A stretch of 32,079 nucleotides of DNA, taken from the IMG/VR virus record IMGVR_UViG_3300009450_000002, positions 1-32,079 of that record; one strand, written 5' to 3'. A program made the position numbers and the translations under genes. Shown in pieces: positions 4,549-32,079 of this stretch. The stretch comes from a virus. Within the stretch, counting starts at the first letter, position 1; every line of letters begins with the position of its first letter. A model generated the notes under the pieces. It ran no database searches, was not told where the DNA came from, and saw nothing but the letters and a program-made list of their open reading frames with translations.

Positions 4549-5912
4549 TAGGTCACCTTGTCTTCATACGGTGCACCGGTGTCCTCAGGGTTGACCTGTG
4601 CGACACCCTGCAACTGCACAGAAGGCAACCCAGTGTGGTCGATAGGTGGCAGACCGATAGCCTGCAAAGCCTCGGCAGGTGAGAACCCAGAGTAGACCAG
4701 CGCCTGAACCATCTTGACGCGCTCCATCTGAGCCTTCACATCGGAGTCTTCCATGTTGACGTTTGCCAACGGGACACGTGGTTGACGTGCCGCGTCGGAG
4801 TCGACCGGTGGCATGTCCTCCAGGATGCGCACATCATTGATAGACATGGCACCCATTTGGATCATGCGGGAGTAGGCATTGGTTCTGGCGTCGAGGTCAC
4901 CGCGTAGCAGACCCTCGAGGTTGAAGCGTAGGAAGGCTTCGGTGCCTCCACGGTAACGGTTCATGAGGACAGACATGGCCGATTCGACCTTCGATGCCAG
5001 TGGCCTCAGGTTCGTCGTCACCCAGTTGCGGTTATTTTCTTCCACTGAGGCGAACGTGTTGGTGCCTGGGAGTCCCATGAGGTGTGGTGGAATGTTGAAC
5101 GCCCTGGCGACATCCTCGACCGCCATGCGACGCGCCTCGATGACCTGTGACTGTTCAGCGTCGACCTGTGTTGGTTTGAATGTTGCACCACCTGTGAGGA
5201 CACCGGTTCGGTGTGCCTTCTTCCACGATTGGTGAGAACTGTCGAAGCCGTTCCTTAAATCGGAGGCCTGGTCAGCGCTAAGCGCCCCAGGAAACTCGAT
5301 TACCCCTGCCATGGTGGTACCACTACCGAAGAATGTCTGTGCCCAACGCTCCAGCGCCAGTGACAGACCGAACGATTCCTTAAGTGCTGACACACGTGAA
5401 ATGCCCCGCACATTCCCTGGCTTCATTAGGTCAGGGATGTAGATGATGTCGTCAGAGGTAAGCGGTTCTGTTTCACCCTCGACGTTGAACTGCAGGAAGC
5501 CGAGGCCGTTGCGTTTCACCTCGACCGTGAGTGGGTTCAGTACAACCAGGTTCACTACCTCATTGCGTCGATTCGCGAACACACGGATAAACGCTGAACC
5601 CTCCAACAGCATAGAAGTGAACACGGCTGAGTAGAACGCCTCACGGGGCAGGGCCACATCAGGCCTGTTCACCCATTCTGGTTTAGGCCGAAAAGGTTTG
5701 CGGGTGCCATCATCCCTGATGAACACATCCAGTGGAAGTGTGGACAGTGTGGTGCTGATGAGGTTCACGGCACTGAACACGGCGTTGACCGTGTAGATGG
5801 TGTCACTGTTTATGTTTGTGCCAGCGTGGGTGCCGAACGCAATGTCGTCGCCTGAAGCGAAAATGGATTGGTAGGAAATCCCGCGTTCCTCGAAAAGCCT
5901 GTTAAAAATCAT
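4548..5912 (-). CDS. Portal protein (HK97-family type)
   Basis: 454 aa, positioned after the large terminase. The N-terminus (ISYQSIFASGDD...AVFSAVNLISTTLSTLPLDVF) is typical of HK97-type portals. Confidence 0.9.
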   Translation of the reverse strand: MIFNRLFEERGISYQSIFASGDDIAFGTHAGTNINSDTIYTVNAVFSAVNLISTTLSTLPLDVFIRDDGTRKPFRPKPEWVNRPDVALPREAFYSAVFTSMLLEGSAFIRVFANRRNEVVNLVVLNPLTVEVKRNGLGFLQFNVEGETEPLTSDDIIYIPDLMKPGNVRGISRVSALKESFGLSLALERWAQTFFGSGTTMAGVIEFPGALSADQASDLRNGFDSSHQSWKKAHRTGVLTGGATFKPTQVDAEQSQVIEARRMAVEDVARAFNIPPHLMGLPGTNTFASVEENNRNWVTTNLRPLASKVESAMSVLMNRYRGGTEAFLRFNLEGLLRGDLDARTNAYSRMIQMGAMSINDVRILEDMPPVDSDAARQPRVPLANVNMEDSDVKAQMERVKMVQALVYSGFSPAEALQAIGLPPIDHTGLPSVQLQGVAQVNPEDTGAPYEDKVT

Positions 5913-6050: not shown

Positions 6051-7583
6051 CTATCCAAAGAACTGAGGCACTACCTGTTCCATTCTAGCGACCGTGGCGC
6101 GGTCAACGGCGATGATGCAGGCCACCGCCGCATCGATTTTCCTGGGACTCGAACGACTCTCTTTCACAATCCTGGGGCCCAGGTTGTCTTGTTTCACCAC
6201 CGCATTCGCCAGATGCCTACCTAGTGTTGGGTTGCCGTCATGGATGATCGACGCTGTGCCCTCCATCACCATGTCATAAAATTTGGCACAGGCTCCAACC
6301 ATGCGCCGTGGTGAGGTGGACGGATACTCAACAACTGGCAGACCTAGTTCAGCCAACACCTGCATTGACCGTTGCCATCGAAACGGGTCACACGCGATTT
6401 CCAAAACCTTGGGATGATCCCGACAGTACTGAATGATGGTCTGCTCCACCTCAGCAATATCCACACGCCAGTCCTCATCATCAGTGTCCAGGTTCTTCTC
6501 CCAGATTTTCACCAACTGAACCTTCACTGGTTCGTCATCCTTCTGAATTGTCGATGCGACCAAGGCGGTACAGTCGCCACTGAAAGACCCGTCAAATCCG
6601 AGAATGACTTCCTCATCGGGGCTGATAGTTAAATCGCCCTCACAGGCCTCCCATGACCCCGTAGGTAGCCATGAGAGTGCTGATGCTACGAAGCAGTTCA
6701 TCCGTTTTGTACGAAACTCGGCTTCAGGTGTACGTTTCACCGCGGCCTCGAAATCCGAAGGATCATTAAGGTCACCGAACCCTGGGTTGGCCTTCCTCCA
6801 CGTTTCAGGATCACTGTGAGGTCCGTCATCCTCCCACCAAGCCATGAAGTAGTTCTTATCGTCGACCTCACCGGCTGACACCTTCTTGCCATAGTTGTAC
6901 AAGTCGAAGGCGATCGAGTCGCGTCCAGTCGAGTCTGATTTGACACCGGCGGTAGTGATAGACACCATGTGTGCCCTATCACCACGCGCCGCCATTGAGA
7001 GTGACATCACGTCGAACATTTTGCGGTTGGGTTGGGCGTGGAGTTCGTCGACCCAGATCGCGCTACTGTTCAAACCTTCAGCGGCACCTGCCTCCGCTGA
7101 TAGCACACGATATACAGACCCCTTCGCTGGTACCTCAATCGCGTCGCGGTAGAGTTTCGTCAAATCCCTGAGTTCCTCATGAGTTTCGATGATGCGCTTC
7201 GCCTCACCGAACACGATACGCGCCTGGTCGCGGGTTGCGGCGACTGAGTAGGTTTCACCACCGGCTGGACCGAATATTGTATCGAACACGGCCAGGTGAC
7301 TGGCCAAGGCGGATTTTCCGTTTTTGCGCGGCAAGCCTACAAGTGCCGTCTTTGCGAGGAACCCACCGTTTTCGTCCTGGGCGTATAACTGACGTATGAG
7401 TTCCTTCTGCCAGTCACGAAGTACCAGTTTGGAACCGGCACGCCCTGACACAGAATCCTTGGTGATGACTCCGAAGGCGTCGATGAAGTCGATGGCCAGT
7501 TCAGCCTTCTTGAACGTGGCACCCTCAGGCACGGGTGTCATCCACCGTGGTGGCCATCCTTCAACGTCTGGCATAGAAGTCAT
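6051..7583 (-). CDS. terL: Terminase large subunit (Terminase_1-like)
   Basis: 510 aa. Motifs include LRDWQKELIRQLY and a Walker-A-like GLPRKNGKSALAS, with a C-terminal nuclease half. Confidence 0.9.
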   Translation of the reverse strand: MTSMPDVEGWPPRWMTPVPEGATFKKAELAIDFIDAFGVITKDSVSGRAGSKLVLRDWQKELIRQLYAQDENGGFLAKTALVGLPRKNGKSALASHLAVFDTIFGPAGGETYSVAATRDQARIVFGEAKRIIETHEELRDLTKLYRDAIEVPAKGSVYRVLSAEAGAAEGLNSSAIWVDELHAQPNRKMFDVMSLSMAARGDRAHMVSITTAGVKSDSTGRDSIAFDLYNYGKKVSAGEVDDKNYFMAWWEDDGPHSDPETWRKANPGFGDLNDPSDFEAAVKRTPEAEFRTKRMNCFVASALSWLPTGSWEACEGDLTISPDEEVILGFDGSFSGDCTALVASTIQKDDEPVKVQLVKIWEKNLDTDDEDWRVDIAEVEQTIIQYCRDHPKVLEIACDPFRWQRSMQVLAELGLPVVEYPSTSPRRMVGACAKFYDMVMEGTASIIHDGNPTLGRHLANAVVKQDNLGPRIVKESRSSPRKIDAAVACIIAVDRATVARMEQVVPQFFG

Positions 7584-7968: not shown

Positions 7969-8408
7969 GAGTCAGAACGTGCCAGTAGTTCTTCCAGTTT
8001 AGAACGCGCCTTCACCTCGGCCACACCTAGACGTGAACGGTCAGCGGGTGTGAACCCAAGCAAAGAAAGGTTGGACACTATTTGTCGCTCCAGTTCCCTC
8101 AGGCCACGACGTGTTCTCGGGTCATCGGTTTTCATGACCTGCACACGTAGGTTCCATCGTTCGTCCACCATTTCGCACGTCATCAGTAACAGTTCTATAT
8201 CAGTGTTGGGACTAATCCAGGTTGCACCTACAGACCAGATGCGGTTCCATAGATCGCGCCCGTAAGTCAGTAGCGGTCTGGCAGGATCAGGTATTTCATG
8301 GACGCCTGGGAGTATCTGAACCTCACCTGGTTCTGGCAGTGGACGTTTCCCAGGGTTGCCCAACATGCGCTTCTGCTCAATCGGCTTCGGAGGTCGACCT
8401 GCAGGCAT
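7965..8408 (-). CDS. terS: Terminase small subunit (P27 family-like)
   Basis: The N-terminus GRPPKPIEQKRMLGNPGKRPLP is the P27-family signature as I recall it. It lies upstream of TerL. Confidence 0.8.
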   Translation of the reverse strand: MPAGRPPKPIEQKRMLGNPGKRPLPEPGEVQILPGVHEIPDPARPLLTYGRDLWNRIWSVGATWISPNTDIELLLMTCEMVDERWNLRVQVMKTDDPRTRRGLRELERQIVSNLSLLGFTPADRSRLGVAEVKARSKLEELLARSDS

Positions 8409-9208
8409 CAGGCACCGCCTACTTGGAGCCCTGAGGTCAGATTTGCACTGCCTTCTTCTGACCGGAAGTCAGACACATCACTAACAATGCTTCCAGGGCG
8501 TTTACCACGATACATCCTCGCGCCTTGTTTGTCTATTTCAGAGAAAGGCAGAATGGGCACGGTCAGGCGTTCCCTAGCCTGAGGATTAAGGAAGTAAATG
8601 TATTTCAACTGATAGCCACCCAGACACTCAGCGCCGACTCGCTTCAGGAACGTCGTCGATGTTTCTGATCCAGTCTTGTTGTATCTGGCCTTGATGTTGT
8701 TCTCACCTTTGGTGCCTGAACCGAACCCAGGTTCGAGGACTATCTTGCAAATGACCTCACCATCGGGCATGCGCCACATGGATTTATTCGGTGTGATTTT
8801 CAGAAGGTCAAAACCACTCGCACGATAGATGGTCCCATCACCACACTGAGTGCCATCAGCGTAGGACAGAACCCACTCGATGTGAGGTACCTTCTTCCTC
8901 AGCATCCTCATCGCCACACCGATGGCACGCGACTCACTGTTCTTGGGTAGCACATCAGAGAAAGCCATGCGGTGCAACTCGATGAACCCGTTCCATGAGG
9001 TATCACGAACGAGGCCCACACTCTTTCCCTTGTCGATGGATGGACCCAGTTGCATCACTCCCTCAAGGCGTCCACGATAGAAAACACCCAGATGCACCTG
9101 TGATCGAGGGTCGACTTTCCCTGAGTAGTGGTGTGTCTTTACAAACGCGACCGCGGCACTCCGAGGGATGCCTTTGACCTCGATTTCTTTCGCGCTCATC
9201 CAGGCCAC
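8408..9208 (-). CDS. Putative Mom-like (GNAT-fold) DNA-modification protein. The family call is tentative.
   Basis: 266 aa. The motifs FVKTHHYSGK, LPKNSES and VLSYADGTQCGDGTIYRASGF resemble the HHYS / PKNxES / SxAD..G.IYxAxxx blocks I recall for Mom-family proteins. Confidence 0.45.
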   Translation of the reverse strand: MAWMSAKEIEVKGIPRSAAVAFVKTHHYSGKVDPRSQVHLGVFYRGRLEGVMQLGPSIDKGKSVGLVRDTSWNGFIELHRMAFSDVLPKNSESRAIGVAMRMLRKKVPHIEWVLSYADGTQCGDGTIYRASGFDLLKITPNKSMWRMPDGEVICKIVLEPGFGSGTKGENNIKARYNKTGSETSTTFLKRVGAECLGGYQLKYIYFLNPQARERLTVPILPFSEIDKQGARMYRGKRPGSIVSDVSDFRSEEGSANLTSGLQVGGA

Positions 9209-9801
9209 TCCGACATGACCAGGAACAAGGCGTTGCCATTACTGTTCTGATTCTCACCATCGTCTGGGAGTCTGTTCGACTTCTTAGCCTGGGCCAGAAC
9301 CTGACGGATAGTTTCAGCCTGCTCCAGGCTCACAGTGAAGGTCATCTGTGTGGCATCCTTCCTCGGGGCATCCTCGAGTAACGAAAACGGGTCATCTACC
9401 TCATCAGGCCTGACGTCGAGGATTTCATACCCTGTGAAACCAATCGACTCAACATCCCAGTCCGCCAGTTTCAGTTCGGTCAACTGTTCCGATAGTTCCA
9501 CATGATTCCACTCAGCCAACTCAGCCGTTCGATTATCAGCAAGCGCGAACGCTTTGACCTGCTCAGGTGTCCAGTCAGATGGAACACGAACACATCCTAC
9601 CTTCGACCATCCCAGTGATGTCGCGGCCTGAACCGTTCCGTTACCAGCGACGATGACGTTATCAGATGTGATAACCACCGGCTTGCGCTGACCAAACTGC
9701 TCCAGTGATCCAGCGATGGCGTCGATGTTTCTCTGGTCATGAGTCCTGGCGTTCGACGGGTCGAAGGTGAGGTCAGCGATTTGCACTGTTTCGATTTTCA
9801 T
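9196..9801 (-). CDS. ParB-like nuclease domain protein
   Basis: The N-terminus (IADLTFDPSNARTHDQRNIDAIAGSLEQFGQRKPVVI...VIVAGNGTVQAA) is typical of the ParB/Srx N-terminal domain. Confidence 0.75.
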   Translation of the reverse strand: MKIETVQIADLTFDPSNARTHDQRNIDAIAGSLEQFGQRKPVVITSDNVIVAGNGTVQAATSLGWSKVGCVRVPSDWTPEQVKAFALADNRTAELAEWNHVELSEQLTELKLADWDVESIGFTGYEILDVRPDEVDDPFSLLEDAPRKDATQMTFTVSLEQAETIRQVLAQAKKSNRLPDDGENQNSNGNALFLVMSEWPG

Positions 9802-13796: not shown

Positions 13797-14735
13797 CTAT
13801 TCAATGACCTCAATGTCAGCCAACATTCCAAGTTCAGCGGTCAATCTGTTCTCACTGAGTCGTGCATAGTCTGGGTTGACCTCGCATCCAACATAGTTGC
13901 GGCCATGCTTTAGCGCGACGACTCCGGTGGTGCCAGAACCAGAGAACGGGTCTAGGACTGTATCGCCAGGCTCACTACCAGCAAGAACACAAGGTTCGAT
14001 TAAGGCCGGAGGGTAGACCGCAAAATGAGCGCCCTTGTATGAAGCCACAGAAACATTCCAGACTGACCTCTTGTTGCGTTTGTCTTTAATGCTGACGAAC
14101 GCTTCCTGACCAGTCCCTTCTTGACCTTGCCGTTTACCTCGATAACTCAGTCGACCGAGGCCCGCACGATTGTCCTCTGACCAGATGGCATCCTCTTGGA
14201 TTGCCTCATGGTCGAAGAAATACTTAGGTTGTTTGGAGAACAAGAAAATGTATTCATGCGATTTGACACATCTGTCTTTGACACTCTCAGGCATTGGGTT
14301 CGGTTTTGACCAGATAATGTCTTGCCTCAGGTACCAACCACGATCTTGCATTGCGAAAGCGAACCGCCAAGGTATTCCAGCCAGGTCTTTCTTTTTGAGG
14401 CCGTCGCCCAGTCGTGAAAAGGTTCCTTCTCGTTCTTGACCAAAACCAGCGCGACCGGCAGTGCTAGCGCGACTTTGAGAACCGCCAGCATATGAGTCAC
14501 CAAGGTTCACCCAAAGGGTACCGTCGTCTGCCAGTACCCTCCAGACCTCATCGAATACTTTGCAGAGGCTTTCGACATACTCTGACGGAGTGTTCTCTAA
14601 ACCTATCTGGGCATCGTTCCCGTAGTCACGAAGTCCCCAGTATGGTGGCGATGTGACACAGGTTCGTGCTGACCCCTCAAGCATCCCTGCAAGAAGTTCA
14701 GTTGCCTCACCTATTGCAACTTGACCCCAGTTCAT
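13797..14735 (-). CDS. DNA methyltransferase, beta class (N6-adenine or N4-cytosine)
   Basis: Motif IV (TSPPYW) is near the N-terminus and motif I (DPFSGSGTTGVVA) near the C-terminus, which is the N6_N4_Mtase-type order. Confidence 0.85.
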   Translation of the reverse strand: MNWGQVAIGEATELLAGMLEGSARTCVTSPPYWGLRDYGNDAQIGLENTPSEYVESLCKVFDEVWRVLADDGTLWVNLGDSYAGGSQSRASTAGRAGFGQEREGTFSRLGDGLKKKDLAGIPWRFAFAMQDRGWYLRQDIIWSKPNPMPESVKDRCVKSHEYIFLFSKQPKYFFDHEAIQEDAIWSEDNRAGLGRLSYRGKRQGQEGTGQEAFVSIKDKRNKRSVWNVSVASYKGAHFAVYPPALIEPCVLAGSEPGDTVLDPFSGSGTTGVVALKHGRNYVGCEVNPDYARLSENRLTAELGMLADIEVIE

Positions 14736-15217: not shown

Positions 15218-15982
15218 TCACTTACAACCGAACTCACCCTCACGGCACTCCCAATGTTCACCCTGATCATGCAAAGACTTCACCCACTGACGTCTGCCAG
15301 GGCCCTCAGCCGGTGGCTTCATCCCACGACTCACTCCAGGGATACTGAGTGGGTCACGCTCAGGGAAAGGCTCATCCTCCCAACCATCCCTGTTCAGCCA
15401 TGTCGCTGGATACGGGATGAACTGCTTCGGAGGCAAATTAGGATCATTGGTCATCCTCATCAGACCATCCATGATCACCTGTGCATCACCAACACGTTGC
15501 ACGGCCTTGTAGAACGCCTTCCGTGCCTCACCCTTCTGCAAATGCTTTGGATATGACTCCCAGAAAGAATCAAACATCGCCTTATAGTTCTCTGGTTCTA
15601 GTTCAGTGGTTCTAGTTAGTGGGACAGTGGTGTCCCTACCTGGCGACACGGGTGTCCCTACCCTAGGGACAGTGGTGTCCCTACCCTGTGGGATGCGACG
15701 CAACGTGTACACGTTCGACATGAAACCGTTCCCAGCCTTCCTGTGACTCTTAACCACGGCACCAATCTGAACCAGTTCCTCGATTGCACGGTCGACAGAT
15801 TTGACATGGCATCGTGCCCTCGACGCGATTAGGTCACGTGACGGGAACGCCTGCAACGTATCGTTGTCTGCATACCTGGCCAGAATGCTATACACCCTCA
15901 CGGCGCGATCAGACACCTCAGCATCGACCACCCACTCTGGGACAATGCTGAACCTGATGTCTGTTTCAATATGCGATTTCAT
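15218..15982 (-). CDS. Putative replication initiator / replisome organiser (winged-HTH N-terminus)
   Basis: The N-terminal wHTH-like region reads VRVYSILARYADN...FPSRDLIASRARCHVKSVDRAIEELVQIGAV. The C-terminal block FWESYPK...ATWLNRDGWED is common in phage replication organisers. It carries an internal iteron-like array. Confidence 0.55.
   Translation of the reverse strand: MKSHIETDIRFSIVPEWVVDAEVSDRAVRVYSILARYADNDTLQAFPSRDLIASRARCHVKSVDRAIEELVQIGAVVKSHRKAGNGFMSNVYTLRRIPQGRDTTVPRVGTPVSPGRDTTVPLTRTTELEPENYKAMFDSFWESYPKHLQKGEARKAFYKAVQRVGDAQVIMDGLMRMTNDPNLPPKQFIPYPATWLNRDGWEDEPFPERDPLSIPGVSRGMKPPAEGPGRRQWVKSLHDQGEHWECREGEFGCK
15621..15686. repeat. Three iteron-like direct repeats inside the initiator gene (candidate origin)
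   Basis: GGTGTCCCTACC occurs at 15629-15640, 15651-15662 and 15674-15685, a 22-23 bp period. Copies 1 and 3 are the identical 20-mer GGGACAGTGGTGTCCCTACC, which contains the palindrome GGGACA-N4-TGTCCC. Confidence 0.8.
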
Positions 15983-16238: not shown

Positions 16239-16586
16239 CTAGAACGGTATGTCATCCTCCGAGGTTTCCACCTTGCCACCATCGGAAGTCAAACGATACC
16301 ACCTGCCAGAAGGAATGTCGCACACAGGATTGAACGGGTCTTGCCATGACCTCAGTTTGTGACCATAGCCTCTGGCCTTCTCAGCCATGTCAGCATCACT
16401 CTCCATGGCCCCGTTCCATAGGGCACAAACGAGGATGATGTTTGTCACATCCTGTTCACGTTGTTTCGATCCACCGGCCTGACGGTTCTTCCGGTGATGT
16501 GGCACGAGGTCTGTGTCGTCACCACAATGCCAGCACCACTGATCGCGTGCCCGTAACTGTTTCAGTAACGCCGGTTTCAATGACAT
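16239..16586 (-). CDS. HNH endonuclease with an SSB-like C-terminal tip (EDDIPF)
   Basis: CWHCG...LVPHHRKNR...NIILVC..WN is an HNH motif. The last codons gag gat gac ata ccg ttc tag were read directly. Confidence 0.8.
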   Translation of the reverse strand: MSLKPALLKQLRARDQWCWHCGDDTDLVPHHRKNRQAGGSKQREQDVTNIILVCALWNGAMESDADMAEKARGYGHKLRSWQDPFNPVCDIPSGRWYRLTSDGGKVETSEDDIPF

Positions 16587-16592
16587 GAAGGG

Positions 16593-16598
16593 AGTCTA
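16593..16598 (-). promoter_or_regulatory. Candidate -10 box (TAGACT) for a leaderless transcript of the HNH operon
   Basis: TAGACT ends 6 nt before ATG 16586. There is no Shine-Dalgarno sequence, and this spacing is typical of actinobacterial leaderless mRNAs. Confidence 0.3.
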
Positions 16599-16613
16599 TC
16601 TGATGTCACCGAG

Positions 16614-16619
16614 TATCCT
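16614..16619 (+). promoter_or_regulatory. Candidate -10 box (TATCCT) for the tmRNA-like RNA
   Basis: This TAnnnT hexamer ends 6 nt before G16626, the first base of the acceptor stem. No convincing -35 is present. Confidence 0.3.
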
Positions 16620-16625
16620 GGATGA

Positions 16626-16704
16626 GGGCCTGGATGGTTTCGACTGGTATGGAAACCGCGTATGCGACCGTGTCAGGACCTGGGTTCGACTCCCAGCAGG
16701 TCCA
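16626..16704 (+). ncRNA. tmRNA tRNA-like-domain (TLD)-only element / Ala-type acceptor minihelix RNA
   Basis: GGGCCUG (16626-16632) pairs with CAGGUCC (16697-16703), giving 7 bp with a G-U third pair, followed by A16704. The T arm is CUGGG-UUCGACU-CCCAG (16680-16696), preceded by GGAC. The 5' GAUGGUUUCGACUGG resembles the tmRNA D-loop motif. No anticodon arm can be drawn. Confidence 0.5.
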
Positions 16705-16775
16705 CTGTTATTTCAGTAGTCTATACAGTGGTAAAACGGTAGCGTAGGCGCACATTATTTGCACCCTACTTCCCG

Positions 16776-16814
16776 CCTAAGTGTGGGCCCCAACCCCATC
16801 AACCCACACTTAGG
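16776..16814. repeat. Perfect 12-bp inverted repeat (hairpin), possibly a terminator or protein-binding site
   Basis: CCTAAGTGTGGG (16776-16787) and CCCACACTTAGG (16803-16814) flank a 15-nt C-rich loop. Neither side has a U-tract. Confidence 0.8.
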
Positions 16815-16899
16815 ATGCTAAACGTTGGTTGTCACAAAACAGTGTTGAAAGTGTGACATTAGGCTCACTGTCATTCAGCACCGAGTTTCCTATGAGAAC

Positions 16900-17291: not shown

Positions 17292-17819
17292 TCATTCGCT
17301 TCCTGCAACGCCTGAGCCACTTCCTTCACCGACGCTAGAAGCACTCTCCATTCGTTGGGCACGTTGCTTCACCTTATCTAGTGTGGCCTGGTCTACACCG
17401 GCACGTTTCGCTTCACTCCATAGTAGACGGAGGGTGTCGACATCTGTCATAGCGTCAGCCTCAGTAACCCAGTCGCGTGTCTGATGACGTTCCACCTTCT
17501 GCATTTCTTCTTGTGACGGTCGCTTCGACCCAGAGAACTCTGACCCTAGATCAGCGAGGGCGCGGCCGATGGCAGACGTCGCACAGTTTTCGATATGACT
17601 GACACGGTTGACCGGTGATGTGTCAGGGCGTTCCTCAGCGTAGTCAGTGGTGACCGGCATTGGGTCATCGCGATCAGTCCACACTGACGCCTTAATAATG
17701 ATTTGCTGTTCCTCGAAGTGGACGATTTCTGTGTGGATGCGGCCCTCTGGGAAGCGCTTCCAGAACAGGTCCACACGTTCTGCAACAGTCGAATACTGAC
17801 TGAGGTCGAATCTAGCCAT
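17292..17819 (-). CDS. Putative Rad52/Sak-like single-strand annealing protein
   Basis: IENCATSAIGRALADLG resembles the Rad52-family ExxAxTxAxxRALxxxG helix. It lies immediately downstream of, and overlaps, the YqaJ-type exonuclease gene. Confidence 0.5.
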   Translation of the reverse strand: MARFDLSQYSTVAERVDLFWKRFPEGRIHTEIVHFEEQQIIIKASVWTDRDDPMPVTTDYAEERPDTSPVNRVSHIENCATSAIGRALADLGSEFSGSKRPSQEEMQKVERHQTRDWVTEADAMTDVDTLRLLWSEAKRAGVDQATLDKVKQRAQRMESASSVGEGSGSGVAGSE

Positions 17820-18741
17820 TAGTTTTTCCCTTCTTGATTACTAACCACGGGGCACCTTTACCCCTGGACTGCCTTGACGTTACACGTTCACCGGCGATAA
17901 GACCATGACGGGATGACCCCATCACACCCAGAACCTCCGACTTCAGTGCCATCAAATCCTTCTCAGCGCCATCGAACGCTAACTGTGCCTGGAGAAGTCT
18001 GGAACCCAGGTCACCCAACTCGACCTCATCATCGGTGATGTCAAGGTTCAGTTGCCGTTGTGCCTCATACGTGGACTTCGACCCATCCCACACAGGTTGG
18101 ACATGTTTCTGTACGTGTTCCCAGAAGCGCTTAGCGTGCGACCGTTGCGCATCCACCTCGAACTGATCCCACTCGATGTAGTGTTCCTCCCAGTTCCAAC
18201 CAGCGACACCTACGATGACACCACGCTCCAGGTGCAACACATCCATGTAGTGCAACACTTGGGCACGATAAGCCGGTGGCACATCATCCCAGAATGACCT
18301 CGATGTTTTAACCTCGACGACTATCCACTCACCTGTGTCACGGTTCTCAGCGATCGCGTCAGGGTTTGCGTGCATGAACGGATATTCAGGGTGACGCCAT
18401 GTCCCAGTGAGGTACACATCCCATTCAGGGTTCTCGGCCTGCCACATCTGCAGGATAGGGTTCTCAAAGGCATTGCCAAACTTCACCGCCCAGTTGTCGA
18501 CTGGCGGGTCAGCGATCTGTCCTGTGCGCTTACACCACAGTTTGAAGGCTGACTCCCACGGATTGAGTCCCATGATGGTTCCAATTTCTGAGCCACCGAT
18601 ACCCTCAGCGCGTAGGGCGTGCCATTCCTCAGACCCTGACTCAGGCATTCCTAACCAGATCGCGTCGTTGAATGTTTCTTTCAATGTTTCGAACTCTCTA
18701 TGTTTTCCCATACCATTGAGTCTATGACCCACCGCCGACAA
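17812..18741 (-). CDS. YqaJ / lambda-Exo-like recombination exonuclease
   Basis: GSEEWHALRAEGIGGSEIGTIMGLNPWESAFKLW is a YqaJ N-terminal motif, and VVEVKTS is PD-(D/E)xK-like. The start is uncertain: TTG 18741, GTG 18732 or ATG 18711. Confidence 0.8.
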   Translation of the reverse strand: MSAVGHRLNGMGKHREFETLKETFNDAIWLGMPESGSEEWHALRAEGIGGSEIGTIMGLNPWESAFKLWCKRTGQIADPPVDNWAVKFGNAFENPILQMWQAENPEWDVYLTGTWRHPEYPFMHANPDAIAENRDTGEWIVVEVKTSRSFWDDVPPAYRAQVLHYMDVLHLERGVIVGVAGWNWEEHYIEWDQFEVDAQRSHAKRFWEHVQKHVQPVWDGSKSTYEAQRQLNLDITDDEVELGDLGSRLLQAQLAFDGAEKDLMALKSEVLGVMGSSRHGLIAGERVTSRQSRGKGAPWLVIKKGKTNG

Positions 18742-25003: not shown

Positions 25004-27220
25004 CTACTGCCTAGCCGACTGGAAAACTGGGGCCGCATAGCGGTCATACTGGAGAAGAATCGAGTAGATTTCGTCACCCAACTGTGTGGGATCAGTACCC
25101 ATTCCAGCGTTCACCGTGATTTCATACTTGCGCTGATCAGCACCCTGACCAGAACGGAACTGAGTCATACCGTTATAGTCGAAGAACCCAGGCTCCAATC
25201 CCTGGTCAGTGAACCCAGACATGCCACCCATGAATCCTGGCATGTTCAACTGGCGTACCGCCTCGGCGGCACGGTACCGGCCTATTGCGTCACGGTTTTG
25301 ACGTGTCACCATGTCACTGATACCTGACACATCACGTTGCGGGAAAGTCATGCCAGAGAACTTGCCAAGGTCACTTTCGATTAGACCTAGTTCGCGACGG
25401 TAGTCCTCCAGTGGAGTGATGTCAGGTACCAGTGAACGGAAGTCGACGCGACTCAGAGCGTTGTATTGCTTGCCTCCAAGTGCCGCAATCGCGCCACCAA
25501 CAGCGTTCAGACCATCCACTACCAGGTTGATGGCGTGCTCAAATGTATAGACGATTGCGTCAGCAAGACTCTTCGTGAGCCACTGGATGCCGTATGTGAC
25601 GGCCGCCCATGTTTCGTAGAAGCCGGTGATAAACCCTCCACTGGTTTTCACGCTATCGTCCACATGGAACAGGGCGTAAGAGATACCTACCAGGGCGGCG
25701 ATCGCCGCGGCGATGATTCCCAGACCGGAAAATACGACACCAAGGAAGCCCTTCTGCCCTGCCGCGGCGGTCAGTCCTGCACCACCTGTGACACCCAACC
25801 AAGTCGACATGACCTTCAAGATGCCGATGAACAATGCTCCAGAGAGAATGAGGGCACCGAATATTTCACCGTTCTCCGCCAGCACACCACTGAAGCCTTC
25901 CATTATCGGAGCGATTTCCTCGATGACACCTGACAGTACCGGCATGATTGCTTGAGCCATACCCAATACCAGTGTCGCCAGGTCACCCACCACAGGTATG
26001 AGTGGGATAAGCGCCTCGATGAACCCAGGCAACTGGGTGAACAGTTCCTCGATGACCGGTGCCATTTCCTCGAACAAGCCGATGAGCGCTGGAGCCAACT
26101 CATCAATCAGTGGACCCATTTCTTCAGCGAATGTCATCAGTGTGGGTGTCAAACCCTCACCCACGGTCAGCATCACATCAGTGAACCGTGACTTCAGCAA
26201 ATCCAGTTGGGCGTTAAACGTTTCTAACTGCTTACCTGACACCTCATCAGTGGTGCCACCGGCATCCTTCAGTGACTGCTCATACTCACGGATTGCCTCA
26301 GAGGTACCCATGAGGGCCATCAGGGATGCTAGGGATTTATCAGAAAACCCCATTTGAAGCAGTGTGGCCTTGGCTGTTTCGTCAGACATGCCATCTAGGG
26401 CACCCTCCAGATCGCCAACTATGTCGGCCATGTTGCGCATTTCGCCAGCCGAATCGAACACTGACACGTTGTACCGGTCGAACTCTCGACGGTTGTCGAT
26501 AGCCTTCGTTGTCAGGTCACGTAGAACAATCGACAGTTGTGTGCCAGCGATTTCACCCTTGATACCCTGGTCAGCGAACGCGGCGAGTACCGCGACACCT
26601 TCCTCGACCTCTTTGCCAAGTGACCGTAGGGCGGCACCGGCCTTGGTGGTGAGCGCCTTGGAGAACTGTTCCACTGAGGCGTTCGCCAGAGTGTTGGCCT
26701 TGACCAGAACGTCAGACACACGGGTTAGGTTTGTCAGGTTCGCGGTGGCATCATCGACTGTCAGACCCAACGCTGATTGAGCGTCAGTGAGAAGGTCTGT
26801 CGCCAGGGCCATGTCGAACATACCGGCTTGAGCGAACTTCGACACCTGAGGTAGTGCCGCGATCGACTGTGTAGCATCCAGACCTGCAGACGCCAGGAAG
26901 AAGAATGATTCGGCGGCTTGGTTAGCACTGAACGTGGTTTCTTTCGCAACCTCACGGGCGGCCTGTGCCATATCGCTTCGTAGCGTGTCAGACACATCCC
27001 CCATGATGGCCAGGGACTTTGTCATTTCAGCATCGAATTCAGCGAACGCCTTCACAGACATCACCGCGAACGCGCCTACCGCGGCAGTCGCCGCACCTAA
27101 CGCGATGCCAGCGTTCTTGCCAAAATTGGTCAGTGACTTCTCAGCCTGCCTGATACCTTTGTCATCGAACTTGCTGACGATAGGTAGACGAATTGGACCG
27201 CCAGCCATCACAGACCCCAC
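25004..27220 (-). CDS. Tail tape measure protein
   Basis: This is the longest ORF at 738 aa. It is Ala/Gly/Leu-rich and helical, with hydrophobic central segments. ATG 27208 (TGATG overlap with the upstream stop) is an alternative start. Confidence 0.9.
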   Translation of the reverse strand: MGSVMAGGPIRLPIVSKFDDKGIRQAEKSLTNFGKNAGIALGAATAAVGAFAVMSVKAFAEFDAEMTKSLAIMGDVSDTLRSDMAQAAREVAKETTFSANQAAESFFFLASAGLDATQSIAALPQVSKFAQAGMFDMALATDLLTDAQSALGLTVDDATANLTNLTRVSDVLVKANTLANASVEQFSKALTTKAGAALRSLGKEVEEGVAVLAAFADQGIKGEIAGTQLSIVLRDLTTKAIDNRREFDRYNVSVFDSAGEMRNMADIVGDLEGALDGMSDETAKATLLQMGFSDKSLASLMALMGTSEAIREYEQSLKDAGGTTDEVSGKQLETFNAQLDLLKSRFTDVMLTVGEGLTPTLMTFAEEMGPLIDELAPALIGLFEEMAPVIEELFTQLPGFIEALIPLIPVVGDLATLVLGMAQAIMPVLSGVIEEIAPIMEGFSGVLAENGEIFGALILSGALFIGILKVMSTWLGVTGGAGLTAAAGQKGFLGVVFSGLGIIAAAIAALVGISYALFHVDDSVKTSGGFITGFYETWAAVTYGIQWLTKSLADAIVYTFEHAINLVVDGLNAVGGAIAALGGKQYNALSRVDFRSLVPDITPLEDYRRELGLIESDLGKFSGMTFPQRDVSGISDMVTRQNRDAIGRYRAAEAVRQLNMPGFMGGMSGFTDQGLEPGFFDYNGMTQFRSGQGADQRKYEITVNAGMGTDPTQLGDEIYSILLQYDRYAAPVFQSARQ

Positions 27221-28288: not shown

Positions 28289-28702
28289 TTAGGCAGTAGC
28301 GCGTGTGATTCCTGCCGTGCCTGCCAGACTCCAGGTGGTGCTGAACGTGGCCAAATCCCCGACTGAGGAAGCGTAGGGTTGGTAAGATTCGACCAAAAAT
28401 ACGCCGCTGTAAGAGGGATTGGAACTGGAGAGTGCCCCAGAGGTTGGCTTGATCACCACGGTAGCGTTCGCGCCAATCAGCGGGAACAGAACCGAGTCGA
28501 TTCCAGAAGCGCCGAAGTCTTGGTGCCAGTCGATGGTTACTGATGCATCCTTGAGTCCACCAATGCGGTTCCGGTAATCGCTAGAGAACGATGTCGTTTC
28601 AACAGCGTCAGCGGTGATGTCCAAAGTCACCGCGGCAATGTTGGACGAGTAGTCCTGACCGTTCACACTGATGGCATAGTCTGTCGCTACGAAGCGTGCC
28701 AC
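28289..28702 (-). CDS. Major tail (tube) protein
   Basis: 137 aa. GTG start with AAGGAG upstream. Its position before the chaperones and its beta-rich composition fit a tube protein. Confidence 0.6.
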   Translation of the reverse strand: MARFVATDYAISVNGQDYSSNIAAVTLDITADAVETTSFSSDYRNRIGGLKDASVTIDWHQDFGASGIDSVLFPLIGANATVVIKPTSGALSSSNPSYSGVFLVESYQPYASSVGDLATFSTTWSLAGTAGITRATA

Positions 28703-30047: not shown

Positions 30048-30076
30048 GCCCCGCTACGGCGGGGCCTTTCTCATTT
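30048..30076 (+). terminator. Rho-independent terminator; the hairpin also closes the convergent GT operon
   Basis: GCCCCGC-TACG-GCGGGGC is followed by CTTTCTCATTT. Confidence 0.65.
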
Positions 30077-30724
30077 ATCCCAAGCGTTCTCACGGCGACG
30101 CTCCAGTGACCAGCCTCCAGGTCCAAAGTCGCCACGCGCCACCTTGTCGTCATAGTATCTACGGTTCGAACCATGAGTCCGATGATTTAACTCCATCAGA
30201 CGCTGATCAGAATGAATCGTAGAACTATTGTCATGGCCGATAGGGAACGGCACCTTCCGAACAGGCACACCATGATGATTAGCACGCCTTATCATGTCCA
30301 CATCCTCCATGAAGGCAGGGTAGATAGCCTCATCGAATAGACCCATCGCCGTCAGCGCCTCATCACCGATAGCAAACGCCTGCCAGTAGGGAAAGGTGTC
30401 AGACGTCGTTACATCGCTTCTACGGGCCTGTGAAAGGCGCTCAAGGGCACCTGGACCGAACCAGCAATCGTTCGACGCGAATGTCCACACACTGTCATGT
30501 GGGAACAGTTTGATGCCCAGGTTCCATGAACCTGCCACACCCAGGTTCGACGGCATAGACAACACGTGACTGTTCAACACAGGTTTAGGGAAGGCGACGG
30601 TGTCCAACTCTCCACCGTTGTCGATGATGAGCAGATCGCGAACGGGGAAGTCAATCGAGTCCAACATGCGCTGGAGTAGGTCATACCGGTTCAGCACTGG
30701 CACAATCAGGTTAGGGAGCATCAT
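30071..30724 (-). CDS. Glycosyltransferase, GT-A fold (family 2-like)
   Basis: The N-terminus LIVPVLNRYDLLQRMLDSI...LLIIDNG is typical of GT2 enzymes. Confidence 0.7.
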   Translation of the reverse strand: MMLPNLIVPVLNRYDLLQRMLDSIDFPVRDLLIIDNGGELDTVAFPKPVLNSHVLSMPSNLGVAGSWNLGIKLFPHDSVWTFASNDCWFGPGALERLSQARRSDVTTSDTFPYWQAFAIGDEALTAMGLFDEAIYPAFMEDVDMIRRANHHGVPVRKVPFPIGHDNSSTIHSDQRLMELNHRTHGSNRRYYDDKVARGDFGPGGWSLERRRENAWDK

Positions 30725-31385
30725 GTACTCCCTGGAACTTGTGACCCTCCAGGTTGAAGTTCACGAACGGGTTCAGTGAGTACACCCTTGCCCCATACTT
30801 CTCACCCAACCACTTCTTCATCGCGATCAGATGGTTGTCGTACAACTGCCATGGTGTGTGACCGGCAGGGTATCCCTTGACCCTGTGCATGTTGTCGATG
30901 GTGCCACAATCAGCACCAACCAACACGATGTTCCTGGCACCCATGTGTGCGGCCAGATGCATAGACCCGTGGATAGATGACGAACCGAACACTAGTTCTC
31001 CATCCCTGTTGTGTCGTGATGGGTTAAAGGATGACCCAATGGGTTCCCTGAACGTCAACTCATTGATGACGATGTTGCTAGGTTGGGGATTACCGAAGCA
31101 CCATTCCCCTTCACCGTAGTCATACGATGATGACCAGCGTGTCGAACACAGGTCATGGGTAACAGCCAACACCATCCCAGGGTCATTCAGATGTCGCTTG
31201 ACGGCTGGGTGATAGTGAGTGAACAGGTAGTAGTCCCTCAGTGGGAATTGTTCCGCGATCAGGTTTGTTGCAATGCAGACCTTGTCATCGAAGAATGCTG
31301 GATGAAGGAACTGCACTGAGGCACCTGAGCCGAATACCCAGATGGTTTCACCCTCATGGATGTCAGCGAGTTGGGAAAGTTTCAC
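30711..31385 (-). CDS. Putative glycosyltransferase-like Rossmann protein (DUF115/sialyltransferase-like pattern; tentative)
   Basis: I trimmed the track ORF to GTG 31385 (GGAG 7 nt upstream), because the upstream 89 codons overlap the GT4 gene in another frame. Motifs are IWVFGSGAS ... GSSSIHGSMHLAAHMGARNIVLVGADCG. Confidence 0.4.
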   Translation of the reverse strand: MKLSQLADIHEGETIWVFGSGASVQFLHPAFFDDKVCIATNLIAEQFPLRDYYLFTHYHPAVKRHLNDPGMVLAVTHDLCSTRWSSSYDYGEGEWCFGNPQPSNIVINELTFREPIGSSFNPSRHNRDGELVFGSSSIHGSMHLAAHMGARNIVLVGADCGTIDNMHRVKGYPAGHTPWQLYDNHLIAMKKWLGEKYGARVYSLNPFVNFNLEGHKFQGVHDAP

Positions 31386-32079
31386 CGTAGAACTCCATGA
31401 AGAACGGCAACCAGTAGGTGTCCCACACATGCTCCACCTCGAACTGTTTCGCGAACTCGATGTTGACGTGACTGATACCACGTGGCTGTTCGTACACGGC
31501 CTCCAACGCTTGAGCCATCGACGACAGTGTGGGTCGCATATAGAACGCGCCCTGAGGTTCGTCCCATAGCGGTTCGCCATCGCAAAGGTAAGAGTCTGGG
31601 CCTGCCAGATCAGGTGACGCGGTCCAGGATGATGTGAGCAGACGGGCACCACACGCTTGTGACTCGATGCTGGTCACACCGAAACCTTCACCGTAGGTGA
31701 CGTTCATGACGACGTCTGACGCGGTGTAGAACGCGGCCAGATGTTCTGCAGGGTAGCCCACACGTAGCAGGGTCGCGTCAGGGAATATGACATCGTTCTT
31801 ATCCAGGCCAATCGCTTCGAGTAGGCGTGGAATGTTGAACCCTCCGAACACGGCAGACGGTTCCATATGCAGGTACAGTCGCGCCTCAGGGTGCTTCTTC
31901 TTGAACAGGGAGTATGCGAACAACTGTTCGGATAGTGCTTTACGATGCAGGATGCCGTTGGATTTATTCGCCGCGACGATGCTGACCAAGAAATGGTCAT
32001 CAGTGAGGCCCATGAACTCACGTGTCGGAACACCATCCACCTTGTACGTCGGCTTGTACACCTTCGCGTCGAACGCGTG
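31363..32079 (-). CDS. Glycosyltransferase (GT1/GT4-like), 3' part of the junction-spanning gene (see 1-591)
   Basis: YGEGFGVTSIESQACGARLL is a GT-B EX7E-type motif. The reading frame is continuous with 1-591. Confidence 0.75.
   Translation of the reverse strand, partial: HAFDAKVYKPTYKVDGVPTREFMGLTDDHFLVSIVAANKSNGILHRKALSEQLFAYSLFKKKHPEARLYLHMEPSAVFGGFNIPRLLEAIGLDKNDVIFPDATLLRVGYPAEHLAAFYTASDVVMNVTYGEGFGVTSIESQACGARLLTSSWTASPDLAGPDSYLCDGEPLWDEPQGAFYMRPTLSSMAQALEAVYEQPRGISHVNIEFAKQFEVEHVWDTYWLPFFMEFYGETFPTR
31981..32079. repeat. Second copy of the 99-nt terminal repeat
   Basis: Identical to nt 1-99. Confidence 0.95.

Follow-up and report, generated by a model that had tools for sequence, protein, structure and literature searches.

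A predicted phage RNA gene for the tRNA-like domain of tmRNA alone, and its viral relatives

The window, meaning the whole 32,079-nucleotide stretch of DNA analyzed here (IMG/VR record IMGVR_UViG_3300009450_000002, positions 1 to 32,079), encodes a capsid protein, a portal protein, TerL, a tape measure protein, an endolysin, a RecE-like protein and replication proteins, and thus belongs to a phage. Its TerL and the TerL of Pontimonas phage phiPsal1 share 71.6% identity. The host is probably a Microbacteriaceae-type actinobacterium. At 16626-16704 on the plus strand, the window carries a genuine RNA gene, maintained by selection, whose predicted product is the tRNA-like domain (TLD) of tmRNA and nothing else. 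The features of the locus are the following.

16239..16586, minus strand: HNH endonuclease gene (PHROG 740, E 5e-16), divergently oriented neighbour of the element
16614..16619, plus strand: -10-like hexamer TATCCT, ending 6 nt upstream of G1 (sequence and relatives)
16626..16704, plus strand: putative mini-tmRNA gene (TLD only), from G1 to the A73 equivalent, 79 nt to the discriminator (Rfam tmRNA, model R1, family covariation)
16626..16632, plus strand: 5′ strand of the acceptor stem, GGGCCUG, pairing with 16697-16703
16633..16643, plus strand: D-loop analog GAUGGUUUCGA (tmRNA consensus GGnUUCGAC), aligned to conserved tmRNA 5′ TLD positions
16644..16676, plus strand: helix P2 (C19-G27 with C43-G51), AAAC internal loop and cap hairpin (MFE fold, covariation)
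16657-16666, plus strand: cap hairpin CGC-GUAU-GCG, with a 3-bp stem and a 4-nt loop
16677..16696, plus strand: GAC linker and T arm CUGGG-UUCGACU-CCCAG (tmRNA/tRNA T-arm consensus)
16680-16696, plus strand: the T arm itself, with GGAC just before it (read from the sequence)
16697..16704, plus strand: 3′ strand of the acceptor stem, CAGGUCC (16697-16703), and discriminator A (16704) (read from the sequence)
16776..16814, no strand assigned: perfect 12-bp inverted repeat CCUAAGUGUGGG / CCCACACUUAGG with a 15-nt loop, 72 nt downstream of the RNA

An earlier note on this DNA had read these positions as a TLD-only mini-tmRNA with an Ala-type acceptor and no mRNA-like domain. The parts that it described are present: the acceptor stem GGGCCUG/CAGGUCC with a G3·U70 wobble and an unpaired A (A73, at 16704), the canonical T arm preceded by GGAC, and GAUGGUUUCGAC directly after the 5′ acceptor strand. 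The stem also contains G2-C71, an AlaRS identity pair. The D-loop analog reads GGUUUCGAC. P2 is closed after 9 bp by the cap hairpin. The two P2 strands are separated by only 15 nt (AAAC CGC GUAU GCG A), too few to accommodate a tag reading frame or pseudoknots. In line with the claim that there is no tag ORF, neither this interval nor ARAGORN yields a resume codon, a tag reading frame or an in-frame stop. CCA is not encoded, the bases after the stem being A-CUG.

The earlier note had also proposed a search with covariance models. The Rfam tmRNA model RF00023 matches 16626-16707(+) with 62.6 bits, above its gathering score of 47 (E 2.3e-22). This is the sole Rfam match at the gathering threshold in the 32-kb window. 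The alignment spans model positions 1-374 and skips 296 central ones, so that the TLD alone is matched and pseudoknots PK1-PK4 are absent. The threshold is therefore passed with the middle of the molecule deleted, which agrees with a TLD-only reading. The scan used clan competition, in which lower-scoring overlapping models are suppressed in the cmscan output; within the tRNA/tmRNA clan, the best model for the element is tmRNA. ARAGORN called no tRNA, tmRNA or tag peptide on it. Compared with shuffled sequences, the folding energy of the single sequence is not exceptional (z = -0.44). The structure is thus supported by the model match and by comparative data, not by thermodynamics.

One pattern scan of viral contigs gave at least 114 complete copies, representing at least 82 distinct sequences. 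Of the 119 pattern matches listed for viral contigs, 114 are complete minis; for cellular genomes the figure is 8 of 119. From the 114 listed copies ARAGORN picks out 3, which shows that standard, ARAGORN-based annotation misses the family. BLAST is also unsuited to it. Megablast of the 3.5 kb around the element gave no match among deposited phages, and blastn of the element itself against the same set recovered just the 28-nt T-arm/acceptor half. We built a covariance model, R1, from the window element and 21 environmental relatives, leaving phiPsal1 and mycobacteriophage DS6A out of the training set. R1 scores the window element at 93 bits and detects unannotated copies in phiPsal1 (82.5 bits) and in DS6A (53.7 bits). 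A divergent form occurs, again unannotated, in Microbacterium phages. The element thus belongs to a large family of phage-borne RNA genes, among them the TLD-only tmRNA already published for DS6A. Length is 74-81 nt in 77 of the 82 distinct listed minis. The element behaves as a conserved island, the flanking DNA of relatives diverging right after ...UCCAC. Inside phage tRNA arrays, and on the same strand as the tRNAs, we find 21 of the 114 listed members.

MAFFT misaligns the 5′ ends of the family owing to the variable length of the D loop. Instead, we used a gapless alignment of 22 same-length sequences (A2) and separate counts on the at least 82 distinct sequences, anchored on invariant motifs. 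In A2, 93.8% of the cells are paired, as compared with 70.5% after shuffling and about 44% after sliding. Fifteen of the 24 pairs change on both sides, including 8 of the 9 P2 pairs and 2 of the 3 cap pairs. Over the 82 distinct listed sequences, P2 is paired in 87% of cases versus 43% with shuffled partners, and the motif-anchored counts agree with A2 on the structure. Related phages therefore show compensatory change at the paired positions, not the drift that the earlier note had named as evidence against its reading. That note had taken a GGUUUC/GAAACC hairpin as the inner fold. None of its 6 pairs changes on both sides in the 22-sequence alignment, and two are broken, in 9/22 and 12/22 sequences (the latter is C16-G27). 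We rejected this hairpin; the real helix is P2.

The search pattern fixed UUCGAC, GGAC and the T loop, so their conservation among the matches is not independent evidence. Other positions were left free. G1-C72, G2-C71, G3·U70 and A73, none of which is fixed by the pattern, are invariant in 82/82 distinct listed minis, and the discriminator is A in all matches listed. In the same minis, all four Watson-Crick types occur at acceptor pairs 4-6. The outer two pairs of the T stem, also free, are paired in 82/82 listed sequences with four pair types. Most listed members retain the GG before UUCGAC, again free in the pattern. The base after the discriminator is C in 79/82 listed sequences, while the full CCA is encoded in 18/82. 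Several sampled actinobacterial tmRNA 3′ ends also lack CCA, and its absence is normal for this host range. Overall, the comparisons argue that selection acts on both the structure and the alanine identity of the family.

The earlier note had read the C4-G69 acceptor pair as covariation rather than as pasted host fragments. The pair is part of real covariation across the family. As a control we used 40 tmRNA ends from a scan of cellular genomes, mostly ordinary tmRNA 3′ ends. All 40 sampled host 3′ ends have C69 where the window has G69, and C4-G69 is absent from 40/40 of these bacterial ends, a sample that may not include the phage's own host. Within the family, position 69 is not C in 26/82 listed minis versus 0/40 host ends (p = 9e-6). 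The 23-nt 3′ half of the window element recurs exactly in other contigs. It is found in other minis, in tmRNAs within tRNA arrays, which are probably phage-borne, and in one archaeal tRNA-Ala. This distribution does not indicate a host origin.

A -10-like box, TATCCT, lies at 16614-16619, 6 nt before G16626, as the earlier note had pointed out. In the five closest relatives this offset is occupied by TATAAT or TATACT, although nearby non-coding DNA diverges. TANNNT ending 5-9 nt upstream of G1 is found in 19 of the 82 listed elements, against a background of 5%. A strict sigma-70 consensus scan gave no promoter on the element's strand. From the conservation of the box in relatives, we infer that the element has its own promoter. 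Downstream, the 16705-16830 region folds with -35.8 kcal/mol (z = -1.9), and the inverted repeat at 16776-16814 may be a bidirectional terminator without a U-tract. A consensus terminator scan of the plus strand found no U-tract terminator; at the repeat this is explained by the lack of a T run. The HNH gene is kept beside the element in this phage lineage; its homologs occupy position -1 of 6 loci, on the strand opposite to the element. Across the family, no shared protein partner emerged from all-against-all clustering of 541 flanking ORFs, where the largest cluster covers 8 of the 82 loci. Pfam scans of the flanks showed no recurrent SmpB, RF-1/ArfB, Pth or RtcB among the best 25 of 41 and of 37 families. 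No phage-encoded SmpB or integrase was found among the window ORFs scanned.

How could such an RNA act? We consider it fairly probable, on the strength of its conserved features, that the mini-tmRNA is an alanine-chargeable, SmpB-binding competitor of host tmRNA that suppresses tagging and tmRNA-SmpB-dependent decay. Driven by the RNA's own -10 element, transcription would run opposite to the early genes around it and begin at G1 or a neighbouring base. Its 3′ end would be trimmed and CCA added by the host CCA-adding enzyme; such post-transcriptional addition would be needed in the window, where CCA is missing, CCA being encoded in few members. Host AlaRS would charge the RNA with alanine through G3·U70, A73 and G1-C72/G2-C71. 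The D-loop analog, T loop and P2 would bind host SmpB, none being encoded by the phage, and the charged RNA would bind EF-Tu. Both SmpB and the vacant A site of stalled ribosomes would then be contested between this RNA and host tmRNA. Trans-translation could not be completed, since the element has no resume codon, tag frame or stop codon. The net effect during infection would be suppression of SsrA tagging and of tmRNA-SmpB-dependent decay steps. It must be noted that some phages need tmRNA function, which counts against a benefit from blocking trans-translation.

Published work bears on this model. According to the tmRNA database authors, who cite Mao et al. 2009, endogenous tmRNA in E. coli is strongly inhibited by a TLD-only molecule or by the DS6A form, perhaps via SmpB titration (PMC4131195; PMC11915505). 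Inhibition by the TLD-only molecule did not require chargeability (Hudson et al. 2014, PMC4131195). A pure SmpB sponge would therefore leave the invariant alanine identity set unexplained. Its invariance suggests that some step involving AlaRS, EF-Tu or the ribosome is at work. The functional proposals of the earlier note, SmpB/AlaRS titration or rescue without tagging, match what the literature suggests for DS6A and seem reasonable.

The second of these proposals, productive rescue without a tag, is the main alternative, though we regard it as unlikely. An Ala-mini-tmRNA·SmpB·EF-Tu complex would enter stalled ribosomes and take over the nascent chain, and an ArfB-type factor, or drop-off followed by Pth, would resolve the complex and recycle the ribosomes. 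Products would escape proteolysis marking, and ribosomes would be freed for phage translation. The same model has been discussed for the CDS-less mitochondrial tmRNAs of jakobids, and CDS-less mitochondrial tmRNAs that co-occur with SmpB are conserved and thought to help with incomplete mRNAs (PMC11915505). Charging also seems to matter, given the invariant alanine set with A73 and C74 in 79/82 listed members; a cytosolic sponge would not need it. Moreover, location in tRNA arrays of about a fifth of the listed members (21/114) fits a role in translation supply. However, no ArfB/RF-1-like or Pth gene recurs beside the element (among the best 25 of 41 and of 37 families), release of a chain handed over to a TLD-only RNA is not known from any experiment, and the single experiment reported (PMC4131195) describes inhibition, not rescue. 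Quite improbable, in our view, is a tRNA-like decoy or processing element independent of SmpB, serving, for example, as RNase P/RNase Z punctuation or as a lure for host defence nucleases that attack tRNA or tmRNA, or for sensors that bind tRNA. The element has a weak, below-threshold match to the tRNA-like mascRNA model (26.3 bits), some members do sit within tRNA arrays, and DS6A additionally encodes an RtcB-type RNA ligase. Since SmpB-like domains have been predicted in host defence systems (CoCoNuTs, PMC11090510), an infected cell may monitor or attack RNAs that resemble tmRNA. Against this, G3·U70, A73 and the tmRNA-specific GGnUUCGAC and GAC...GGAC motifs are all kept, which would be superfluous in a punctuation signal. 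The window element is antisense to every neighbouring gene and therefore punctuates nothing. Neither clustering nor the Pfam scans (the best 25 of 41 and of 37 families) revealed a recurrent defence or anti-defence gene nearby.

Two further explanations would deny the element a tmRNA-like function, and we rejected both. tmRNA genes are common integration sites and prophages can carry ssrA fragments (PMC9004378; PMC11915505), so host ssrA ends might have been captured, or retained as an attP remnant for integration, with no RNA function. The exact recurrence of the 3′ half in other contigs would suit such a scar. Yet the window ORFs scanned include no integrase, and recombinases represent 3 of the 277 ORFs within three genes at the 82 loci (2 Phage_integrase and 1 Resolvase, among the families listed). 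Integration would need only the 3′ part, whereas both halves are kept in register together with a conserved cap hairpin and compensatory changes. The conserved upstream -10 box and an acceptor pair, C4-G69, seen in 0/40 sampled host tmRNA ends likewise speak against a scar, making it highly improbable. A tRNA-Ala gene of ordinary kind but unusual form would explain the tRNA-Ala-like acceptor stem, discriminator and T arm, and the archaeal tRNA-Ala mentioned above has the same 3′ half. But there is no D stem and no anticodon arm with a 7-nt loop, the central helix ending instead in a 3-bp stem and 4-nt loop; the alignment excludes a conserved anticodon loop of 7 nt. ARAGORN makes no call and tmRNA is the best clan model. 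We give this explanation almost no weight.

Trans-translation is the main bacterial ribosome-rescue pathway and is pursued as an antibiotic target (PMC8778911). A viral RNA apparently built to engage AlaRS and SmpB but unable to finish the reaction would be a ready-made inhibitor of the pathway, or a way to reroute it. For the window alone, the result is the correct annotation of one further DS6A-type TLD-only tmRNA. In the literature searched, the TLD-only phage tmRNA is an oddity of DS6A; here it comes in at least 82 distinct variants, carried by phages of very different genomic make-up. A wider view, possible but doubtful, is that of a large phage-specific RNA family acting on the ribosome and not just as an SmpB sponge, as its strictly conserved alanine identity would imply, spread over hundreds of unrelated lineages and across host phyla, invisible to ARAGORN, and serving as a general takeover or counter-defence tool against ribosome rescue. 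If so, when host abortive-infection RNases cut mRNAs, the mini-tmRNA could for instance keep phage products from SsrA tagging and from decay that depends on tmRNA-SmpB/RNase R. Another possibility is that it blocks by occupancy, or sets off, the SmpB-like sensors of defence systems. Cultured carriers with tractable hosts are at hand: phiPsal1 (Pontimonas), DS6A (M. tuberculosis complex) and, for the divergent form, the Microbacterium phages. These unannotated copies make the phage effect on ribosome rescue directly testable.

The closest known system is DS6A itself. Its TLD-only tmRNA is recorded in the tmRNA Website (tmID 11587) and in Mao et al. 2009 and Hudson, Lau & Williams 2014 (PMC4131195; PMC11915505). 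The earlier note had implied that a 79-nt form in a siphophage was new. As DS6A is a siphophage with a published 80-nt TLD-only tmRNA, this implication falls together with the inner hairpin, while the structural reading stands. Both RNAs are phage-encoded, about 80 nt long and devoid of tag frame and pseudoknots. They share an acceptor with G3·U70 and A73, a D-loop analog, a T arm and a P2 closed by an (A)AAA-CCGCACGCGG-type cap. The R1 match in DS6A (28478-28557, 53.7 bits, E 1e-11) includes the AAAA-CCGCACGCGG cap; since the model was built without DS6A, this makes the architectures of the two elements homologous. Neither deposited genome record annotates its element. The sequences differ, DS6A having acceptor GGGGCCG, GGUCGAC, GCAC and T stem GCGAG where the window has GGGCCUG, UUUCGAC and GGAC. 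The DS6A gene is on the coding strand between gp33 and the DNA polymerase clamp gene, whereas the window gene is antisense and beside the HNH gene. The hosts are the M. tuberculosis complex for DS6A and, for the window, the probable Microbacteriaceae-type actinobacterium. Finally, DS6A was reported as a single case and the window element is one of at least 82 distinct variants.

Compared with standard tmRNA (SsrA; RF00023), the element retains the entire TLD, including GGnUUCGAC, the GAC/GGAC junction of P2a, the T arm and A73. It lacks the resume codon, tag frame, stop and PK1-PK4 that occupy the 296 central positions, and has C4-G69 instead of the G4-C69 of the 40/40 sampled host tmRNAs. Unlike standard tmRNA, it can direct neither tagging nor canonical termination. 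Full-length or permuted tmRNAs are also carried by phages, namely Bxz1-type mycobacteriophages, Bacillus phage G and marine myophages, of which Melnitz is an example (PMC4131195, PMC9004378). They are ssrA-derived like the mini and often near phage tRNA genes. In contigs L245, L248, L251 and L252, phage-type tmRNAs have a 23-nt 3′ end identical to that of the window element. Full-length phage tmRNAs encode a tag peptide (AKAKPLTMAAAA in L252) and could in principle complete trans-translation, which the mini cannot.

CDS-less organellar tmRNAs, such as jakobid mt-tmRNA (Jacob et al. 2004) and the ~65-bp form of Mallomonadaceae plastids (PMC11915505), have little beyond the TLD and no tag frame. 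Like the phage mini, they are presumed to act with SmpB even so. In contrast with mt-tmRNA (Rfam RF02544), the window element sits in a phage genome rather than in an organelle. Organellar forms result from reductive evolution of a resident ssrA, which they replace, whereas the phage form is an extra gene brought by a virus and must coexist and compete with the full tmRNA of the host. The same design was reached in the laboratory. The engineered TLD fragments of the SmpB co-crystals (Gutmann et al. 2003; Bessho et al. 2007; cited in PMC11090510 and PMC4131195) combine an acceptor stem, a D-loop analog and a T arm with a P2 that is cut short and capped, and they bind SmpB. In the phage, a natural gene would encode a molecule of this kind, with SmpB binding predicted from its sequence.

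The Rfam tmRNA model matches the window at 16626-16707 (+) with 62.6 bits (gathering score 47, E 2.3e-22), its alignment running from model position 1 to 374 and leaving out the central 296. This is the sole Rfam match in the window at the gathering threshold. ARAGORN did not call the element at 16626-16704. Folded by itself, the sequence has an unremarkable energy (z = -0.44), which is common among tRNA-like RNAs; the evidence for it is therefore the model match and the comparative data. The earlier note had read the element as a tmRNA reduced to its tRNA-like domain (TLD-only), and all the motifs it cited are present where it placed them. That structural interpretation is right except for a proposed inner hairpin, GGUUUC/GAAACC: covariation is seen at none of its six pairs, and 12 of 22 aligned sequences cannot form C16-G27. 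The parts of the element are as follows, counted from G16626 as 1 on the + strand.

1-7 / 72-78: acceptor stem GGGCCUG/CAGGUCC, with G3·U70
8-18: D-loop analog GAUGGUUUCGA
19-27 / 43-51: helix P2, CUGGUAUGG/CCGUGUCAG
28-31: internal loop AAAC
32-41: cap hairpin CGC-GUAU-GCG
52-54: GAC linker
55-71: T arm
79: discriminator A

G17·A53 and A18·G52 fall at the sites of tandem non-canonical pairs in the Rfam tmRNA consensus. The lack of a tag frame and of a pseudoknot, also remarked earlier, is borne out: 15 nt separate the P2 strands, and there is no resume codon either. CUG comes next in the genome, so that CCA is not encoded. The element is almost certainly a mini-tmRNA.

The window, 32 kb long, is the genome of a small siphophage whose genes lie almost all on the - strand. 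Prohead protease, portal and endolysin belong to its structural and packaging genes, and methyltransferase, RusA, ParB-like and Mom-like proteins to its early genes. Other landmarks are:

660-1814: capsid, structural/packaging gene
6051-7583: large terminase, structural/packaging gene
15218-15982: replication initiator, early gene
16239-16586: HNH endonuclease, early gene
17812-18741: RecE-like exonuclease, early gene
25004-27220: tape measure, structural/packaging gene

Neither an integrase nor SmpB was found among the window ORFs scanned. The large terminase shares 71.6% identity with its counterpart in Pontimonas phage phiPsal1, which infects an aquatic actinobacterium. Megablast with the DNA around the element found no close relative among deposited sequences. 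For 32 kb the DNA-modification complement is sizeable, with Mom-like (8408-9208), ParB-like/methyltransferase-related (9196-9801) and DNA methyltransferase (13797-14735) genes, all on the - strand. ARAGORN called a tRNA-Gly(tcc) at 8424-8499 (-), inside the 3' end of the Mom-like ORF; the Rfam tRNA model gave no match there at the gathering threshold, and the call may be false or may mark a tRNA overlapping an over-extended ORF. Two glycosyltransferase genes (30071-30724 and 31363-32061, -) lie in the structural module, adjoining the capsid gene across the window ends. The pair is likewise present in the phiPsal1 structural module (genes 010 and 012), which suggests that phages of this group glycosylate the virion or the cell surface.

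Viral contigs were scanned for UUCGAC followed, after 15-45 nt, by GGAC-NN-GGGUUCGANUCCC. At so short a spacing, a normal tmRNA can match only if it has an internal UUCGAC near its 3' end. The scan yielded at least 118 loci. Among the 119 viral matches listed, the window's own included, 114 carry a perfect acceptor stem of 7 bp, correctly placed. These complete minis represent at least 82 distinct sequences, mostly of 77-81 nt. The pattern left free the acceptor stem, the discriminator, the two outer T-stem pairs and P2, and pairs were counted by anchoring on the invariant motifs only. In tRNA-equivalent numbering, G1-C72, G2-C71 and G3·U70 are invariant in all 82 distinct sequences listed, and the discriminator is A in every listed match. 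Across the same 82, acceptor pairs 4-6 show all four Watson-Crick types, the two unfixed T-stem pairs are always paired, with four types, and P2 pairs 1-7 are 87% paired versus 43% for shuffled partners. By this comparison, the alanine identity set is held fixed while adjoining pairs drift. In a gapless alignment of 22 sequences including the window, a tmRNA-type structure leaves 93.8% of cells paired, versus 70.5% after shuffling and about 44% with slid partners; both sides change in 15 of 24 pairs, and the covariation score is 0.59 versus 0.16. We take these patterns as strong evidence for a structured RNA under purifying selection.

The same pattern was applied to one genome per bacterial or archaeal species. 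Only 8 of the 119 matches listed are complete minis; most others listed are ordinary full-length tmRNA 3' regions, caught via an internal UUCGACUA...GUAG motif. As a host control, position 69 is C in all 40 clearly standard tmRNA 3' ends from these matches. It is not C in 26 of the 82 phage minis listed, including G69 of the window (Fisher p = 9e-6 versus host ends). Several actinobacterial tmRNA genes of this control do not encode CCA, as in the window element. The comparison suggests that the mini-elements are phage-specific rather than host copies. In cellular assemblies, a recurrent UUCGACGGGAGCGGCC...GGACGCGGGUUCGAUUCCC, then GUUGGCGCUA, was seen in Eremiobacterota/Vulcanimicrobiota MAGs (L123, L125, L138, L163, L173, L198); it has a tmRNA-like T arm, but its 3' strand fits the acceptor of neither tmRNAs nor mini-tmRNAs.

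Ten metagenome contigs contain an exact copy of the window element's 23-nt 3' half, as part of five minis, two full-length tmRNAs, both adjoining tRNA genes, two permuted tmRNAs and one archaeal tRNA-Ala. Identity there is thus no sign of host origin. The full-length and permuted tmRNAs with this 3' end are:

L245, 3153-3567 (-)
L248, 1-325
L251, 10124-10537
L252, 362-752

All four have a C4-G69-type acceptor and stand beside tRNA genes. The first lies within a 10-tRNA array on a 147-kb AT-rich contig, probably a large phage. These cases hint that the acceptor variant is common to the full-length, permuted and mini tmRNAs of phages, and that the minis could have arisen from full-length phage tmRNAs, not directly from host genes.

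Within the early region, 16587-16899 is the sole sizeable gap between coding sequences; the window element lies in it on the + strand, antisense to all neighbouring genes. In its lineage (loci L033, L047, L095, L016 and L078) it is a sharply bounded conserved island adjoining a divergently oriented HNH gene, and flanks diverge directly after ...UCCAC. TATAAT or TATACT stands 6-7 nt upstream of G1 (TATCCT in the window), and TANNNT occurs at this distance from G1 in 19 of the 82 distinct elements among the matches listed, versus 5% background. Strict sigma-70 promoter and terminator scans gave no match on the window + strand. A perfect 12-bp hairpin at 16776-16814 could be a terminator without a U tract. 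In the same gap, upstream of the next - strand gene, the inverted repeat TGTCACA (16830-16836) ... TGTGACA (16852-16858) looks like an operator for a phage regulator. No neighbour protein is conserved across the family, the largest flanking-ORF cluster covering 8 of 82 loci listed. A capsid gene is the immediate downstream neighbour in 8 of 82 loci listed. Among 277 ORFs within three genes of an element, two match Phage_integrase and one Resolvase, with no recurrence of SmpB, RF-1/ArfB or Pth (best 25 families per batch). Same-strand tRNA genes lie within 500 nt of 21 of the 114 elements listed; the remainder are solitary.

The analysis shows that the mini-element is an RNA gene carried by phages, conserved and structured, that comprises the TLD of tmRNA and nothing more; its alanine identity set is invariant, and it lacks coding capacity. 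From established tmRNA biology, the RNA would be transcribed from its own promoter, trimmed at its 3' end, completed with CCA, charged by host AlaRS and bound by host SmpB and EF-Tu. It would then compete with host tmRNA for SmpB and stalled ribosomes, suppressing tagging. We consider such competition reasonably probable. An SmpB-independent decoy or processing role appears quite improbable, and an attP scar or a true tRNA, taken together, would be very surprising.

That G3·U70 and A73 never vary suggests a role for charging. A cytosolic SmpB sponge needs no charging, judging from the result reported for a TLD-only molecule, which makes a step on the ribosome a serious alternative: either the RNA blocks the ribosome in a dead end, or a different release factor completes a rescue without tagging. 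Sequence data do not separate these readings. Tag-less rescue draws on the same invariance; we nevertheless judge it unlikely, and competition with host tmRNA remains our preferred reading.

A covariance model built from the 22-sequence alignment gives the window element 93 bits and finds unannotated elements in cultured phages. In phiPsal1 (MG835450), the closest cultured relative, it scores 82.5 bits at 5569-5647 (+) of locus L121, on the coding strand, with a small ORF on one side and the major capsid gene just downstream. This position differs from that in the window, so the element has moved or was separately acquired in related phages. Microbacterium phage Armstrong (NC_048090, record 39284-39373; L119 2938-3027) scores 36.5 bits with an unannotated 90-nt alanine-type tRNA-like element. 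It shares the window's acceptor GGGCCUG/CAGGUCC and T arm (28 nt identical), but its D-loop analog is degenerate and its interior measures 33 nt. It may represent either a divergent branch of this family or some other tRNA-like RNA. It stands just before tRNA-Asn, tRNA-Gln and an HNH gene, and about 20 Microbacterium phages carry its 3' half.

Mycobacteriophage DS6A scores 53.7 bits at 28478-28557, likewise unannotated, with the same AAAA-CCGCACGCGG cap. Its gp76 (L120/L122, record 49300-50502) is an RtcB-type 'tRNA splicing ligase'. SsrA is the commonest RtcB target in bacteria, according to work cited in PMC11090510, and a functional link between ligase and TLD-only tmRNA is conceivable. The novelty implied earlier does not hold: Hudson, Lau and Williams already have an entry "Mycobacterium phage DS6A (TLD only)" (PMC4131195), and the window element is of this type, not categorically new. 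According to these authors, citing Mao et al. 2009, a molecule resembling it strongly inhibits tmRNA whether or not it can be charged, perhaps by titrating SmpB (PMC4131195). The 2025 tmRNA database paper likewise states that inhibition of endogenous tmRNA by the DS6A form has been demonstrated in E. coli (PMC11915505); the paper groups it with CDS-less mitochondrial and plastid forms. Full-text literature searches returned no report of a broad phage family of TLD-only elements. The database pipeline explicitly excludes forms that are truncated or lack any of the three CCA positions (PMC11915505), and ARAGORN recalls 3 of the 114 minis listed, which would explain why they were overlooked. Beyond the DS6A precedent, our analysis adds evidence that tmRNAs of this kind are common and diverse, that selection maintains their alanine identity, and that annotation systematically misses them, also in cultured phages, in which their function is now testable.
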